Shown: positions 13,111-56,797, counted from the stretch's first letter. The stretch is 64,000 nucleotides of DNA from an uncultured Chloroflexota bacterium (GCA_903884455.1 CAISEW010000041.1:98086-162085); one strand, 5' to 3'. Program-made: numbers and translations. The notes: generated by a model not told the origin, from the sequence alone.

Positions 13111-13647
13111 TTAAACCTTGTAGCTATCTCGATAATACACCAGCAAGTAGAGCTCTCTGAGCAAGTCAGACTCGTTGTGCTTTATGATTTGCTGCAAATA
13201 GTTATTATCCTCTGTGTAAAGGAATCTTTGCCATAGCAAAGGGACATCTCTGCCGCTTATCACTGGCTCGTTAAAATAATGCTCCGCGTGCGAGAACAGC
13301 TCGTCCAACTTAGGCCACTTGAGGTAAAGTGCCTCGGCTTTTTCCTTCCAGGGCTGAAATAAGTCTATCCCTTCTATATCAATCCCTTTAGCTTGAAGAA
13401 ATCCTTTCTCGAAGGAGAGATTGTAGGCGTAAAATGGCTTGGGGAGCGTCGGAACGAGTTCCGCAAGCTGAGCGATAAACGGTGCTTCTTCTTCCGAATT
13501 CCGGCAAATTATCTCGAGACGGCTCCCTTGAATATAGCCAAAGAGCACTATCTCATCTTGGTCCACATCAAGGCCGGTGGTCTCCAGGTCAATCAAGGTT
13601 CCTTGTGGGATACCCAACATTAACTCTCGGCTGTATGAGGTAATCAT
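13111..13647 (-). CDS. YprB/PolB-exonuclease-like RNase H-fold protein (predicted DEDD 3'-5' exonuclease)
   Basis: IDLETTGLD (Exo I), YNLSFEKGF (Exo II-like) and HNESD. A paralog of the 51388..51969 ORF (shared YNLSF block). Confidence 0.45.
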   Translation of the reverse strand: MITSYSRELMLGIPQGTLIDLETTGLDVDQDEIVLFGYIQGSRLEIICRNSEEEAPFIAQLAELVPTLPKPFYAYNLSFEKGFLQAKGIDIEGIDLFQPWKEKAEALYLKWPKLDELFSHAEHYFNEPVISGRDVPLLWQRFLYTEDNNYLQQIIKHNESDLLRELYLLVYYRDSYKV

Positions 13648-49614: not shown

Positions 49615-49944
49615 CTACTTTTCTAGCTGCTTTAGAGCTTCTTTCACTACCGTTGTTAGCTCCTCGGGGGTAAATGGTTTAGGTAAAAGTGGCCTACCGC
49701 TTTGCTCTATAAAAGTCATGGTTTTCTCGTCCATCATACTCCCGGTAGTGAATACTACCTGGTTTGCCAAACGCGGATATTTTCTTTGCAGCCATTGGTA
49801 TAGTTCTGCGCCGTTCATTTTCGGCGTCCTGATATCAATCAGACAAATGTCATATTGCCTCTTCTCTATCATATCCTGAGCTAACCTCCCATTGACGGCA
49901 ATTTCCACCTCAAATCCTTCCCTAGTAAGGACTCTTTGGCACAT
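49615..49944 (-). CDS. single-domain CheY-like response regulator receiver (N-terminally incomplete at the first canonical start)
   Basis: Receiver motifs DIRTPKMNG (phospho-Asp), T and K. The in-frame sequence upstream of the ATG encodes KRILVVEDEPSIGN but has no ATG/GTG/TTG before the upstream stop. Confidence 0.55.
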   Translation of the reverse strand: MCQRVLTREGFEVEIAVNGRLAQDMIEKRQYDICLIDIRTPKMNGAELYQWLQRKYPRLANQVVFTTGSMMDEKTMTFIEQSGRPLLPKPFTPEELTTVVKEALKQLEK

Positions 49945-50091
49945 ATTGCCAATCGACGGTTCGTCCTCGACTACCAGGATTCTCTTCGTGGTGCGATCAA
50001 GAGTATTTATTGTATGCCTTCTTTAATCAGCGACTCTATGAATAATATTTCTTTTCAGTATTGTAGCAAACATATTTATGCCGTCAAGTGG

Positions 50092-50667
50092 CTAGTTGAA
50101 TTTGCTCATTGCTGCCTCTATCCCCTGGGTAAGAAAACAATCGATGGCTTCGGCCACCGTGGCAATTACAGACTTAATTATCGCTTCTTCCTGAGGAGAA
50201 AAATCGCTGAGCACATAATTGACTATGGCGTCCTCGCTAACGGATTGCTCCTCCGCCTGGGGCCGTCCAATCCCCACCCTGATTCGGGGGAAGTCCTCGC
50301 TGCCTAGGGCGGAAATAATAGAATTCATTCCCTTGTGTCCTCCTGAGCTTCCACTCTGGCGCAGGCGAATTTTGCCCAGAGGCAAATCGAGGTCATCGTA
50401 TATTACCAGGAGGTCGTTCAAAGGGATATTATGCTTACGCACCAGACCAGCTACAGATTGGCCGCTGAGATTCACAAATGTCCCTGGTTTAGCCAGCAGC
50501 AACTTCTCGCCTCTTACTTTGCCAATGCCTACCCTGGCCTGGCATTGTCTTCGGTCAAAGCGAATAGAATGAAGCCTGGCGAAGTCATTCAGACACTGGA
50601 AGCCAACATTATGGCGATTACGGGCATAAGTCTTGCCGGGGTTGCCCAGACCAACTATGAGTTTCAT
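50092..50667 (-). CDS. pth: peptidyl-tRNA hydrolase
   Basis: MKLIVGLGNPG...RHNVGF signature. 191 aa. Confidence 0.9.
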   Translation of the reverse strand: MKLIVGLGNPGKTYARNRHNVGFQCLNDFARLHSIRFDRRQCQARVGIGKVRGEKLLLAKPGTFVNLSGQSVAGLVRKHNIPLNDLLVIYDDLDLPLGKIRLRQSGSSGGHKGMNSIISALGSEDFPRIRVGIGRPQAEEQSVSEDAIVNYVLSDFSPQEEAIIKSVIATVAEAIDCFLTQGIEAAMSKFN

Positions 50668-51387
50668 TAGCTTAGAGTTTATGGGAATTCAGTCTCCGGA
50701 TATTATGGCTGATTCCATCGACGCTAAGCAAATGCTACTCACCCTAAGCAGCAAGCTTGATTGGCTAAATGGCCTTATATTCGCCAGTATTTAGTCTTAA
50801 CGATCTAGAATGTCCCATTTCACAAAAGTTGCATGGGCGACAGTGGCAGGGAAGCCGGGATGATTCGTTTTGTAAAAACGGCTATTTTTTCTGGAGTCCA
50901 ACAGCTCTTTTTCATACGTAAGGCGGCCACCCGCGGCGGATTCAGTTGTTAAAGTACGTAGGATTCGTTTCGTCAGCATTTCCCTTTTATATTTGTGGGC
51001 CGTATGGATTGGCGGAGTGACGCAGGGAGGCAAATGACGGATGAAGCTCAAATGCCAAAGCCCAAATGACAAACCAAGTCCAAATGACAAAATCCATTCT
51101 GGCCACAGCGCTTCCTTTTAGTCTGTGTTGGGTTTGCAGTCAGATTCAGGGAAGCCTCACCTGCGGGATTTGGTTTGTTAGGGTAGCGCACGGGGTTCTG
51201 AACACAAATTAACATGAATTCTTTATTCGAACAAGGGGAAAATGTCGCTTCTTCCCCGAATGGTTGACCGAGGCCGCGAGAATGATGCTGAGGAATAGAC
51301 ACCCATCTCAATAGCGTGCGAGTATTATCCGATTTAGAATATCCTATTTTAGAAAGTGAATGTAGCTAACTACAGACTGTAAGTATT

Positions 51388-51969
51388 TTAGACTACAATT
51401 TTGGATTCCTTAGCAAATTCTAGCCAGACATCGGGTAGCCTTTGGACCGAAAATTGGTATAGCTTGAGAAATCTATCTATCTCATCTTCAATGTAATCCT
51501 GAATTGCCGGGTAGTCTTTCTTCTCATACCATTCTCTAATTTTAGAACCCGAATATCTTTTCCCAGCGAATTTCTCTAGTTTAGCTCCTTCGAAGCGGCC
51601 ATGGTTAAAAATTATCACAACTGGCTCTATATCTATGTATGCGCGTTGCGCAAATAGACTTAATAGACTTTTTCCATTTACCTTGATATCCATCTTTCTC
51701 CAACGATAGATTAGACTGGTAAAATCAAAGCTCAGGTTGTATCCAATTGGCACAAAGTCCCATTTATTCTCCACATTAAATATTGGATAGAATCTTTGCA
51801 AAATTTCCTTTTCCGAAGATTCCCAAGATTTCAGTATATTTAACTTGCCTTTTACATCTCCTGTCCTACTGTCAATTTGCTGGTAAGTTATTGCTATTAT
51901 TTCATCATTATTGAAATCTGGATCTTTTGTTTTTGAGTATGTTTCAATATCGAAGTAGTAATCTGACAT
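51388..51969 (-). CDS. YprB/PolB-exonuclease-like DEDDy 3'-5' exonuclease homolog (RT-associated)
   Basis: FDIETYS...DEII (Exo I), IGYNLSFDF (Exo II), YPAIQD (YxxxD Exo III). A paralog of 13111..13647. Lies 41 nt downstream of the RT on the same strand, in AT-rich DNA. Confidence 0.5.
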   Translation of the reverse strand: MSDYYFDIETYSKTKDPDFNNDEIIAITYQQIDSRTGDVKGKLNILKSWESSEKEILQRFYPIFNVENKWDFVPIGYNLSFDFTSLIYRWRKMDIKVNGKSLLSLFAQRAYIDIEPVVIIFNHGRFEGAKLEKFAGKRYSGSKIREWYEKKDYPAIQDYIEDEIDRFLKLYQFSVQRLPDVWLEFAKESKIVV

Positions 51970-52010
51970 TTCCTTCCTCCATTCAACTCTACATCGTTCC
52001 AGCGACGAGT

Positions 52011-53606
52011 CTACTTTTTATGCGATTTCTTTTTGGAAACCAAATACGAAGATATAGATTTGTCGACAATGTCACCACTTGATGCGGTAGCAGTGATCCA
52101 ATGTGTCATTTCATCCGAAGGTAGAGCAAGTGAAGAATATAATACCGCACGCCTGTCCCAAGGTCCGAGGACATCTATACTGTCACGAAAGCCTCTGACC
52201 CACGTGGTATCTTGGCGTTTTAATGCAAGAAGAGCTTTTCCCCTGATAGACAGGATATTCTCGTAGTTTAGTGGAAGACTAGCTATGCTAAGGCGTTGGT
52301 TTCGCAATAAGTATGATATCCACAGATTAACGAATGGCATTTTCATATAGTAACTTGAAAGAATAGTATTAAATTTTTTCTTGTGAAGAGACACAATCTC
52401 GTCATCGATAACAGCATTTAAATATATCACCACTTCTCTTATGGCAGGGAGTAATCTCTCAAAATTACCTAACACTAGCGGAACTAATTTCCTTATTCTA
52501 TATTTTTTAGCTTTCCTGAGTATATGCCGAATAAGTATGAAGTCGATGGGATCTGAGATAGACTTCTCAAAAAGCTCGTTGTAGGTATCTGACAAAAGCT
52601 GGATTTTTTCATCATTCACTACCTCTGCCAGAACCTTTTCGTATTCCTCATCATAATCAAAAATATCGTAAGGAGTAGCGTAATGAAGCAGCTCATCGAT
52701 TCTTGCGCTGGCTATTTCATCAGCTCTGGCCATCATAGCTGCAGTCTCTTCTTGTTCTTCGTTTCTGAGGAATTCTTTGCGAAATATCTTCATAGGATGA
52801 ACATTAGTTTTTTCTCCTGAAAATACTAGCCTGTGGTATGAATAGAGATGTTGTGTAAGTTCATGAAGTACGAATACAGCATCTTCGCGATTTGCAAAGA
52901 ATATCCTAATATCGTCTACATACCTAACGAAGTCATTGGTGTAAGTCAAGATTTTGTTATCTATATCGGCCATTATCAATTCAGCGAGGATAATACTTGG
53001 GGCCGGACCCACAGGAATACCTCTCGATGTTTCCTTGTTGAGTCCAAAAAGAAAATCCTCCATTATTTTGGCCTGTTTGTCCAAAGTTCCCTTGCCAGCT
53101 TCTTCAATCAAATTTCCAATACGATGAGTATATATTTGATTATAAAAATCTGTTATATCAGCAACAATTACATAGCCAGATTTGTATTTCTTTGCAAGCT
53201 CATCAGATCTTGACATAAAAACATCCCAACCTGTTTCACTAGCGAAAAATGATCCTCCTACATCAGGCTTGATTCTATACGAACATGCAATTTTTTTGGG
53301 CTCGGGTATTCTATAGCTCTCTATAGGTTCGCATAATTCTCGAACAAGGGCTGTATAGATTATGGAATCAATTGGGTCCAATTGATGTGCTACGCGAAAA
53401 ATGCCATTCGATTTTGGAGCAAGGTTTATTATGGGCGATTTTGGGTGATAGTTATCAAGATCGATTGACATTATGAATTCTTTAACCTTCTGCCAGTTGT
53501 GGGAAATGGCAGCAAACTCGAAGATTCTGGGGTAAAAATCACTGTGAGAGTATTTCTTAAGATGTTTTAGTGCCCATTCAAGATAGTTTTCTTTCAATTT
53601 CACCAT
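52011..53606 (-). CDS. reverse transcriptase, non-group-II (Abi/UG/DRT-like) with helical C-terminal extension
   Basis: RT motifs: block 1-2 (RVAHQLDPIDSIIYTAL), motif A (VIVADITDFYNQI), motif B (GIPVGPAPSIILAEL), motif C (FVRYVDDIRIF). No maturase or endonuclease domain. 531 aa. Confidence 0.8.
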   Translation of the reverse strand: MVKLKENYLEWALKHLKKYSHSDFYPRIFEFAAISHNWQKVKEFIMSIDLDNYHPKSPIINLAPKSNGIFRVAHQLDPIDSIIYTALVRELCEPIESYRIPEPKKIACSYRIKPDVGGSFFASETGWDVFMSRSDELAKKYKSGYVIVADITDFYNQIYTHRIGNLIEEAGKGTLDKQAKIMEDFLFGLNKETSRGIPVGPAPSIILAELIMADIDNKILTYTNDFVRYVDDIRIFFANREDAVFVLHELTQHLYSYHRLVFSGEKTNVHPMKIFRKEFLRNEEQEETAAMMARADEIASARIDELLHYATPYDIFDYDEEYEKVLAEVVNDEKIQLLSDTYNELFEKSISDPIDFILIRHILRKAKKYRIRKLVPLVLGNFERLLPAIREVVIYLNAVIDDEIVSLHKKKFNTILSSYYMKMPFVNLWISYLLRNQRLSIASLPLNYENILSIRGKALLALKRQDTTWVRGFRDSIDVLGPWDRRAVLYSSLALPSDEMTHWITATASSGDIVDKSISSYLVSKKKSHKK

Positions 53607-53926
53607 GATAATTCCTTATATCCTAATAGAGAAATCAACAATGTATTATAAGAAATATTACTACAAATATTGCTTTAACGCAATTGAGCCAAGAAGCTGC
53701 CTAAACCATCCTTCATCAAGTTGAATCACCAATCTCTTTCTTAAGTTAATGAGCAACGTGACGTTTTGTTATGCTCGTGGCGAACGCTGAATCCCTTCTC
53801 AAAAGTTGCTCAATCCTCCGAATATCGCACTTTGGGGACTTCCGTCTTGGACTTAACGAACTCAAAGCGAAGCTAGAGCGTTACAGCCCAATAAGATTAG
53901 TAAATGCAATTCCGATGGACTTAGAG

Positions 53927-55978
<2,052 letters not shown>

Positions 55979-56080: not shown

Positions 56081-56797
56081 TCACTGGTTTCTCCCGAACG
56101 GGCAGATATAAACGCATATACCGCAAGCCTTGTCCAGAGTCTCTCGTTTACTTAGATAGTTGTCACATGCTTCAGCAGCGAATATCTCGCTCCTTGGTCT
56201 GAGCTTATCGAAAGCCTGTCCGGTAAAGGCATGTGCGGGACAATCCTTCACACATGTACAGCAGTCGTGACACATCTCATCCATAGGCATTCCCGCTTCT
56301 AAAGGAGCATCTGTGAGCACCGTGCCCCACCTCACGCGGGGACCGTGCTCCGGTATAATGAGCAAGGCACTCTTGCCAATCCATCCCAGCCCAGCCAAAT
56401 GAGCTGCTAATTTGTGGGAGAACACACCAGTAAGACTGGTTCTATCCACTGTTTGAGACGACGGGACAACAAAAGCTTGAAAACCGGCTTTATCCAGGGA
56501 TTGGGCTAACATCATAGAAATCGAGTCTATGCGAGGATTTATAATTTGATACACGTAATACCAATAAGTATTTAAGGCAGCAATATTTTTATGATGGACC
56601 AGCGCATTTACAATGCCATCCGTAAGAACAAAGCCATGAGAAACAGCTCGTGGAAACTGAGTTAGAAATTCTCCGCCCTGCTCGGAAATACGCTGTCTGG
56701 CAGGAGTAAGGTCAGCTATTCCGAAGTAAGTGGTCCCCATGTCCTTAGCCAAAGATTCTAGCTTGCCTCTAAGATTTACTTTACCCCTATCTTTCAT
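56081..56797 (-). CDS. 4Fe-4S dicluster protein, epoxyqueuosine reductase (QueG)-like family
   Basis: CHDCCTCVKDCP and CGICVYICP ferredoxin motifs follow a DUF1730-like N-terminal region. 238 aa, shorter than canonical QueG. Confidence 0.4.
   Translation of the reverse strand: MKDRGKVNLRGKLESLAKDMGTTYFGIADLTPARQRISEQGGEFLTQFPRAVSHGFVLTDGIVNALVHHKNIAALNTYWYYVYQIINPRIDSISMMLAQSLDKAGFQAFVVPSSQTVDRTSLTGVFSHKLAAHLAGLGWIGKSALLIIPEHGPRVRWGTVLTDAPLEAGMPMDEMCHDCCTCVKDCPAHAFTGQAFDKLRPRSEIFAAEACDNYLSKRETLDKACGICVYICPFGRNQ

Follow-up and report, generated by a model that had tools for sequence, protein, structure and literature searches.

Why would a reverse transcriptase (RT) travel with an exonuclease gene of its own? 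The question is raised by a 64,000-nucleotide (nt) stretch of DNA from an uncultured Chloroflexota bacterium (GCA_903884455.1 CAISEW010000041.1:98086-162085), here called the window, to which all coordinates refer unless another locus is named. On its minus strand, ligA is followed by 320 nt of non-coding DNA, an RT gene, a 41-nt spacer, an open reading frame (ORF) for 193 residues, 720 nt of non-coding DNA and pth. A preliminary description of this DNA had listed exactly these two genes between ligA and pth, with their strand and lengths, the 41-nt gap and the long non-coding flanks, all of which the ORF map bears out. The RT proves to be a member of a known family, DRT8 or UG7; its companion is a predicted DEDD-type 3'-5' exonuclease. 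The two genes make up a mobile cassette that recurs elsewhere, and the exonuclease may act on the DNA that the RT produces.

The cassette was delimited by its collinearity with a metagenome contig of unrelated flanks (L061), to which it is 88% identical at the nucleotide level and from which it departs at sharp ends, 53763 and 51377. The 3' end is common to three further loci (L005, L146, L007). No other 2.4-kb stretch in the window is as poor in GC as the cassette, at 0.372 against a mean of 0.478 (sd 0.024). The interval as a whole had been called AT-rich. This holds for the cassette (37% versus 48% GC) and not for the rest: the 720 nt between the exonuclease ORF and pth have a GC content of 0.45, and their inner 499 nt reach 0.483.

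The reverse transcriptase

The identity of the RT is clear. The Drt8 (UG7) model of PADLOC matches residues 3-522 over profile positions 1-489 of 493 with an E value of 1.6e-129; the second-best PADLOC model, UG21, reaches 6e-42, and the models of retrons, group II introns and class 2 DRTs are far weaker than Drt8. Pfam recognises RVT_1 alone, with no maturase or endonuclease domain. The catalytic residues are D150 and Y229-V-D231-D232. The three aspartates D150, D231 and D232 are invariant across 38 relatives (down to 48% identity), and so is an N-terminal tyrosine, Y53, a candidate for the priming residue.

The AlphaFold2 (AF2) model, with a predicted local distance difference test score (pLDDT) of 90.6, consists of the RT domain and an all-helical C-terminal half (residues ~283-529). 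Both the model and full-length structural alignments reveal in the latter a helical-repeat (alpha-Rep) domain. The top matches in Foldseek are the DRT6 hexamer (9wy8), DRT4/UG15 (9vdo, 9l9s), Abi-P2, AbiK and AbiA, with ~530 aligned columns. The protein is a full-length member of DRT8/UG7 with class 1 UG/Abi architecture, and not a new RT family. The earlier reading of a YVDD-bearing RT from the UG/Abi/DRT lineage that is no group II intron enzyme was correct: profile classification favours Drt8 by a wide margin, and the protein does not fall cleanly into group II or retron models. The suspicion of a new RT-based module survives in part. A pairing of an RT with a stand-alone DEDD exonuclease did not turn up in the literature searched; the RT itself is already known as DRT8/UG7, and what we have is a variant, not a new system.

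Two forms of DRT8 have been described, one linked to a PD-(D/E)XK nuclease and one without a partner (Mestre et al. 2022, PMC9226505). In addition, there are DRT8 loci in which a PNP/Cap17 domain "replaces the usual nuclease effector" (Rousset et al., 10.1101/2023.01.24.525353). With DRT8 the cassette shares the full-length RT match, the layout of RT and C-terminal helical repeats, the location in a defence island and a second gene of nuclease type in the operon. The defence-island location is evident from the cargo that relatives carry between ligA and pth and from the neighbours of related RTs. The partner, however, differs: no PD-(D/E)XK nuclease gene is present in the interval, and the sole other gene has a DEDD fold of the PolB-exo type instead of an endonuclease-type one. 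The cassette fits neither the nuclease-linked nor the solo variant.

The accompanying exonuclease

The 193-residue protein has an RNase H-like exonuclease fold, as seen in an AF2-type model built with 52 homologues (pLDDT 93.2). Its closest matches in fold and motifs are the exonuclease domain of family-B DNA polymerases and the stand-alone exonucleases of PF10108/PF13482 (YprB); Foldseek ranks the structural matches identically. Among the 52 homologues, both carboxylates of ExoI (D7-x-E9) are invariant. ExoII is N78-LSF-D82, with N78 nearly invariant and position 82 either D or E. In ExoIII (Y159-x3-E163) both named residues are at least 90% conserved and D162 is variable; D113 is invariant again. 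The FDIET and sfDF segments of the family profile align to ExoI and ExoII of Pfu and KOD polymerases. Because of the fold, this alignment and the conserved motif residues, we predict a PolB-exo-type DEDD 3'-5' exonuclease, the active site of which is apparently intact.

The preliminary description had spoken of a DEDDy exonuclease of the PolB/YprB type. Fold, ExoI and ExoII agree with such an assignment; ExoIII is a variant, which reads Y-x3-E where the DEDDy canon has Y-x3-D. The term "proofreading", which had also been used, describes the fold and is unsupported as a function. From the family-B exonuclease domain and from PF10108/PF13482 the protein further differs in that it has no polymerase domain and stays below the Pfam cut-off. 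No PADLOC or NCBIfam model matches it, and in Pfam there is only a sub-threshold match to PF10108; some members of its family do reach PF10108 or PF13482. The accessory exonucleases of CBASS (Cap18) and of Cas2-DEDDh/DnaQ belong to the DEDDh branch and have other partners; they are not its closest structural class.

One stretch of the protein is peculiar. Around residues 99-110 (window 51573-51672) it is locally divergent and has a three-residue insertion (KSLLSLFAQRA). Here nucleotide identity to all other cassettes is only 61-64%, and the same stretch has the lowest pLDDT (77-81).

A second exonuclease gene of the window had been taken for a chromosomal paralog from which the cassette gene might have been captured. 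It lies at 13111-13647 (minus strand), adjoins pfkA, looks like core genome and encodes a 178-residue YprB-like DEDD exonuclease of the RNase_H_2 family (PF13482, E 1.4e-14). The two proteins fall into different Pfam families. BLASTP between them gives an E value of 0.5 and hhalign one of 0.003 with a probability of 10%, and tblastn finds no match at E <= 10. With no significant similarity, the gene is a relative at superfamily level only, and capture from it was rejected.

Pairing of the two genes

An RT gene followed by the exonuclease gene, both in one orientation and separated by 3-41 nt, is found in five different genomic contexts: between ligA and pth in the window, beside type I HsdR and DUF429 (L005), near UvrB (L146), near radical SAM-SPASM and lipoprotein genes (L147), and in L061. 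The gap is 41 nt in the window versus 3-8 nt in the other four copies. Both proteins diverge in parallel across the pairs, with identities of 89, 77, 76 and 69% for the RT and 76, 74, 74 and 72% for the exonuclease. Contigs of equal length hint at two further pairs, P0128 with P0018 and P0130 with P0017. When 72 RTs were placed in a neighbour-joining tree, the six with an exonuclease grouped in one clade, which is small and comes from Dehalococcoidia-type metagenomes; to this clade the exonuclease-bearing variant is confined. Of the remaining RTs, all 52 for which 300 nt or more are available downstream lack the exonuclease. These data are best explained by a single gain of the exonuclease in one RT lineage, followed by joint inheritance. 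A pairing that agrees with phylogeny is the same kind of association that defines the known DRT8 variants.

RTs of this type are not faithful to one partner. Around 80 relatives of the RT no generally conserved partner gene was found; their neighbours are typical defence-island genes, including SMODS, PDDEXK_5, AAA_15/21, AIPR, Abi_C and STAND genes. One sister clade, of 48-51% identity (L082, L084-L086), has a gene for the two-transmembrane effector SLATT_5 (E ~1e-38) that runs in the direction of the RT and ends 28-37 nt before it, e.g., at 737-1390 of L085 and 392-1069 of L086. This arrangement looks like another DRT8-like variant and is unmentioned in the sources that we consulted. In one distant relative (L135), a PDDEXK_5 gene is found downstream of the RT. 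Since SLATT_5 occurs in the sister clade and PDDEXK_5 in L135, UG7-like RTs exchange partners. The list of interchangeable DRT8 partners, PD-(D/E)XK, PNP and SLATT_5, grows by a DEDD exonuclease.

The exonuclease family outside the cassette

An exhaustive search with a hidden Markov model (E <= 0.001) yielded 626 representatives of the exonuclease family at 50% identity. Among the best 150 of these, nearly all are 175-210 residues long. Longer members bear unrelated or unknown extensions; one of them, P0464, is fused to Schlafen AlbA_2. A scan of 185,579 species-level genomes disclosed 54 loci with a homologue, in Dehalococcoidia and many archaea. As to carriage by phages, a single distant one turned up in IMG/VR.

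The contexts are diverse. In Dehalococcoidia, homologues follow a bSEFIR gene (L001 4472-6573), a HEPN-like PDC-M05B gene (L010 6492-7570), an MmeI-like methyltransferase with a 188-residue gene (L004), or a UvrD-PDDEXK_1 gene with HEPN_AbiV nearby (L156 1316-4718). One precedes a HerA-like ATPase (L013), one overlaps a ParD antitoxin ORF by 8 nt (L158 4763-5573), and one is a unit of ~610 nt that has no RT and ends at the same 3' boundary as the cassette (L007). Distant members in Dehalococcoidaceae reside in a conserved, housekeeping-looking setting with radical SAM and adenine deaminase genes. The archaeal homologues (L038-L059, Thermoplasmata/Methanomassiliicoccales; 35-38% identity) keep an acyl-CoA dehydrogenase and a 1,400-residue TPR protein as conserved syntenic neighbours, which suggests vertical inheritance and a role outside defence.

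The exonuclease belongs to a small, old family of stand-alone enzymes, one branch of which entered defence islands and was picked up a single time by a DRT8 lineage. In itself, too, the family may count as a component of defence islands.

Possible functions of the pair

Precedents for an interplay of RT and exonuclease exist. DRT4, AbiK, Abi-P2 and AbiA are constitutively active, protein-primed, template-independent polymerases of single-stranded DNA (ssDNA), and DRT4 and DRT6 make protein-primed random ssDNA (PMC12783706). The product of DRT4 is degraded from its 3' end by ExoI of the host. When the phage protein ORF55 binds the 3' end, ExoI is blocked and ssDNA builds up; ORF55 is likewise an activator of DRT6 (PMC12783706). 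DRT10 is kept from being toxic by SbcB and needs an SSB-like phage protein to become active (10.64898/2026.04.29.721553). In these studies of DRT4 and DRT10 it is a host 3'-5' exonuclease that determines how easily RT-based immunity is triggered.

How close are these systems to the cassette? AbiK, Abi-P2 and AbiA have the class 1 fold in common with its RT, and protein-primed, untemplated DNA synthesis is their feature. Their priming tyrosine sits in an N-terminal fingers loop, to which the invariant Y53 may be comparable. They are, however, single-gene systems and only 13-16% identical to the RT. DRT4 (UG15) and DRT6 (UG12) are single-gene systems as well and depend on a host exonuclease, whereas the cassette encodes its own; here RT identity is 15-17%. 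DRT10 (UG17) uses a 3'-5' exonuclease that sets the activation threshold of RT defence, which for the cassette can only be proposed; unlike the cassette, DRT10 is of class 2, RNA-templated and equipped with a SLATT effector, and its exonuclease is a host gene.

The anti-phage function of the cassette, the nature of its DNA product and the role of its exonuclease we infer as follows. A functional pair, in which the exonuclease acts on the RT's own DNA product, has in our judgement an even chance of being correct. A specific scheme of brake and trigger can be offered more tentatively, and we would sooner doubt it than subscribe to it. Like DRT6, DRT4 and AbiK, the RT would make DNA without an RNA partner, probably protein-primed, untemplated ssDNA. 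The exonuclease of the cassette would degrade this DNA from its free 3' end, so that without infection too little of it is left to do harm. If a phage factor protected 3' ends or inhibited the exonuclease, the balance would tip, and the accumulating DNA would halt the infection. The exonuclease would act in cis in the way the host's ExoI or SbcB does in trans for DRT4 and DRT10.

A brake is favoured on indirect grounds: the exonuclease is harmless enough to stand alone in core contexts, its active site is conserved, and it structurally resembles ExoI. The product of the RT is a plausible agent, since a conserved partner is missing from the majority of RT relatives. Carried to its end, the idea leads to a self-contained sensor of synthesis and degradation: the RT would continuously make protein-primed ssDNA, which its own exonuclease would continuously remove. 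This futile cycle would turn into a toxic build-up of DNA as soon as any phage protein capped 3' ends, coated ssDNA or inhibited DEDD exonucleases. The cassette would then be the first DRT to bring along an exonuclease as its own "antitoxin", and a logic like that of DRT4 would become understandable in hosts without ExoI or SbcB. As a corollary, the exonuclease family would be a portable, hitherto overlooked component of defence islands, since its members are also found beside bSEFIR, HEPN-like, UvrD-PDDEXK and ParD genes. In this complete form the proposal is a doubtful one.

A number of observations weigh against an exonuclease that is directed to the RT product. The mechanism of DRT8 had not been established as of 2026 (PMC13213688), and in the DRT8 system that was tested, the partner PD-(D/E)XK nuclease is required for defence (PMC9226505). 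The effector partners of UG7-like RTs, PNP and SLATT_5, would favour an effector over a brake. The position of the DRT4 priming tyrosine (Tyr125) is not conserved in the RT. Fusions of RT and exonuclease are absent from the best 150 of the 626 family representatives (the longest of these 150 has 452 residues), and in none of the 54 species-level genomes does this RT lie within 7 kb of the exonuclease homologue. Dehalococcoidia homologues of 60-76% identity occur in varied contexts, the close ones (66-76%) without an RT or behind other genes, and RT-linked members do not separate from RT-free ones in the exonuclease tree.

The main rival is an exonuclease that serves as the effector. The RT would sense the infection or make an activating DNA, and phage or host DNA would then be degraded from 3' ends; the exonuclease would fill the slot of the PD-(D/E)XK nuclease in canonical DRT8. 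The nuclease requirement of DRT8 (PMC9226505) and the loci in which PNP stands in for the usual nuclease effector (10.1101/2023.01.24.525353) are in line with such a role. So are the SLATT_5 gene 28-37 nt upstream of the RT in the sister clade, the conserved catalytic residues of the exonuclease and its homologues behind other defence genes, including the one that overlaps ParD and the one fused to Schlafen AlbA_2. A lone exonuclease gene in core-like syntenic contexts of archaea and Dehalococcoidia is, however, unlikely to be toxic by itself, a small 3'-5' exonuclease would be an unusual killer, and the majority of the RT's relatives do without any partner. We consider the effector role unlikely, if clearly worth keeping in mind.

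Alternatively, the two genes might be independent: a "solo" DRT8-type RT and a promiscuous exonuclease of defence islands or housekeeping, which share a mobile fragment without any functional coupling. The second UG7 variant of Mestre has no associated gene (PMC9226505). Most relatives of the RT lack a conserved neighbour, RT-free exonucleases occur in the same clade (L156 and the ~610-nt unit of L007 with its common 3' boundary), and the missing fusions among the best 150 representatives point in the same direction. The pair, however, has survived ~30% protein divergence and five relocations with a spacing of 3-8 nt in four of five copies, and the exonuclease-positive RTs are monophyletic against 52 exonuclease-negative ones. 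Gene order in defence islands usually shuffles faster than that, which counts against independence; we rate a mere coincidence of the two genes as rather improbable. Little credence is left for anything else: all readings other than the product-directed pair, the effector and the independent genes are, even taken together, very improbable.

The ligA-pth interval and the ends of the insertion

The features of the locus are collected in Table 1. Closely related loci, defined by a Pth that is 92-93% identical to that of the window, keep ligA and pth as flanks and have different genes in between. The comparison with relatives that the preliminary description had called for shows that the arrangement is not core genome, and confirms its notion of foreign, variable DNA. 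The cargo consists of DUF3237, a NERD/Zn-ribbon gene and three unknown genes in L149 (1575-5819), of an AbiJ_NTD4/Abi_C gene, MarR, DUF4258 and others in L151 (2019-5985), and includes a CAP12-PCTIR TIR gene in L152-L154 (PADLOC PDC-S35, E 9e-67; L152 933-2572). The TIR, AbiJ/Abi_C or NERD genes of close relatives mark the stretch between ligA and pth as a defence hotspot of this Dehalococcoidia lineage, of which the literature searched gave no earlier description. A strictly empty site, with ligA abutting pth, was not found; every relative examined has other cargo in the interval. Contigs with an identical Pth or an identical exonuclease all carry the same locus as the window.

Table 1. Features between ligA and pth and their positions in the window
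Feature	Position	Strand	Remarks
ligA	53927-55969	-	ORF map
Core-genome flank beside ligA, conserved, with one of the two 9-mers	53812-53926	-	88-92% identity to L151, L152, L149
Hotspot repeat E1, abutting the cassette upstream and outside it	53762-53821	-	88-89% identity to L149 3066-3125
Two-gene mobile cassette (leader, RT, spacer, exonuclease, 11 nt past the stop codon)	51377-53763	-	Collinear with L061
Leader, 157 nt, 5' of the RT	53607-53763	-	Accompanies the cassette in the closest relative only
RT, 531 residues, YVDD	52011-53606	-	ORF map
Spacer between RT and exonuclease, 41 nt	51970-52010	-	Carries ribosome-binding site GGAGGAAGG
Exonuclease ORF, 193 residues	51388-51969	-	Preceded by ribosome-binding site GGAGGAAGG
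Hotspot repeat E2, half copy, abutting the cassette downstream	51334-51356	-	Matches in L149, L151
Orphan segment, 499 nt, between both E2 copies; neither cassette nor conserved core DNA	50835-51333	-	
Hotspot repeat E2, fuller but more degenerate copy, abutting the conserved pth flank	50778-50834	-	
Core-genome flank beside pth, conserved, with the second 9-mer	50668-50777	-	~90% identity to L152, L153, L149
pth	50092-50667	-	ORF map

Where does the insertion end? Towards ligA, core homology to cassette-free relatives stops at ~53812-53854, and towards pth at ~50754-50777. The cassette itself is set between two short intergenic repeats, E1 and E2. Outside this hotspot of the genus they do not recur, and within it they enclose single cassettes. 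The counterparts of E2 are at 4217-4272 of L149 and 3854-3927 of L151, and no chance copies are expected in the window. Its half copy matches L149 4224-4246 at 23 of 23 positions and L151 3861-3884 at 23 of 24. The slot between E1 and E2 is occupied by a 263-residue ORF in L149 and by the RT-exonuclease pair in the window. The left half common to both repeats is GCAACTTTTG.GAA..GGGA. E1 and E2 could be recombination anchors or shared promoter/terminator units. An integrase is not found near them.

The orphan segment between the two E2 copies has no similarity to any compared locus, the four other RT-exonuclease cassettes included, and might be what is left of a former cassette. At 51031-51094 two 32-nt units stand in tandem, with repeated CAAATGAC / GTCATTTG.

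A different view of the ends had been taken before. The 9-mer CTTAGAGTT does occur in identical form at 50671-50679 and 53920-53928, and exactly these two times in the window. It had been interpreted as a target-site duplication or att core. Both copies, however, sit in flanks that are conserved in relatives with other cargo; two or more copies turn up in 13 of 100 shuffled sequences, so that two are not beyond chance; and cassette-free relatives keep a single copy, beside pth in L149 and L152-L154 and beside the ligA stop codon in L151. Moreover, the 9-mers are 157 nt and ~700 nt away from the cassette ends. As a mark of insertion the 9-mer was rejected.

With it falls most of the view that the locus is an undescribed RT system with a proofreading exonuclease, which duplicated the 9-bp target CTTAGAGTT upon insertion and captured its exonuclease from 13111-13647. 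The genes and both 9-mers exist, of course, and a published system of RT and DEDD exonuclease was not found. Yet the RT is a full-length DRT8/UG7 enzyme, the cassette ends at 53763 and 51377, the gene at 13111-13647 comes from another family, and the 9-mers are within chance and lie in core flanks that cassette-free relatives also have. Finally, DNA synthesis is untemplated in the class 1 UG/Abi RTs that have been examined to date, and for such DNA proofreading has no meaning (PMC12783706). There is scarcely any likelihood left in this view.

Beyond the hotspot the neighbouring genes are ordinary housekeeping or regulatory ones, e.g., for an Fe-S protein (Fer4_16; 56081-56797, minus strand) and a truncated-looking response regulator (49615-49944, minus strand). 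In L151 and L152, pth is separated from the response-regulator gene by a large PAS sensor kinase gene, which the window genome lacks.

Flanks and the search for an RNA partner

The 320 nt of non-coding DNA upstream of the RT and the 720 nt downstream of the exonuclease would offer room for a non-coding RNA, as expected of a retron, a group II intron, a diversity-generating retroelement or an RNA-templated class 2 DRT. No sign of one was seen. When 50000-54500 was scanned with Rfam by E value, a single spurious match came up, to a eukaryotic element in the orphan segment, with 22 bits against a threshold of 41; the leader has none. Shuffled sequence folds as well as the leader (z-score -0.51) and the orphan segment (z-score +0.83) do. 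The leader is conserved in L061 (~90%) and over 56-81 nt in L005, but not in L146 or L147, and apart from these 56-157 nt upstream in the two closest relatives the five cassettes have no flank in common. It probably represents the promoter and 5' UTR; a scan for promoters and terminators was uninformative, with counts equal to those of shuffled sequence. A locus free of such an RNA fits the class 1 RTs, which are not known to employ one (PMC13174585). Given the low scores of the respective family models and an RT that has neither a maturase nor an endonuclease domain, a retron, a group II intron, a diversity-generating retroelement or a class 2 DRT is extremely improbable here.

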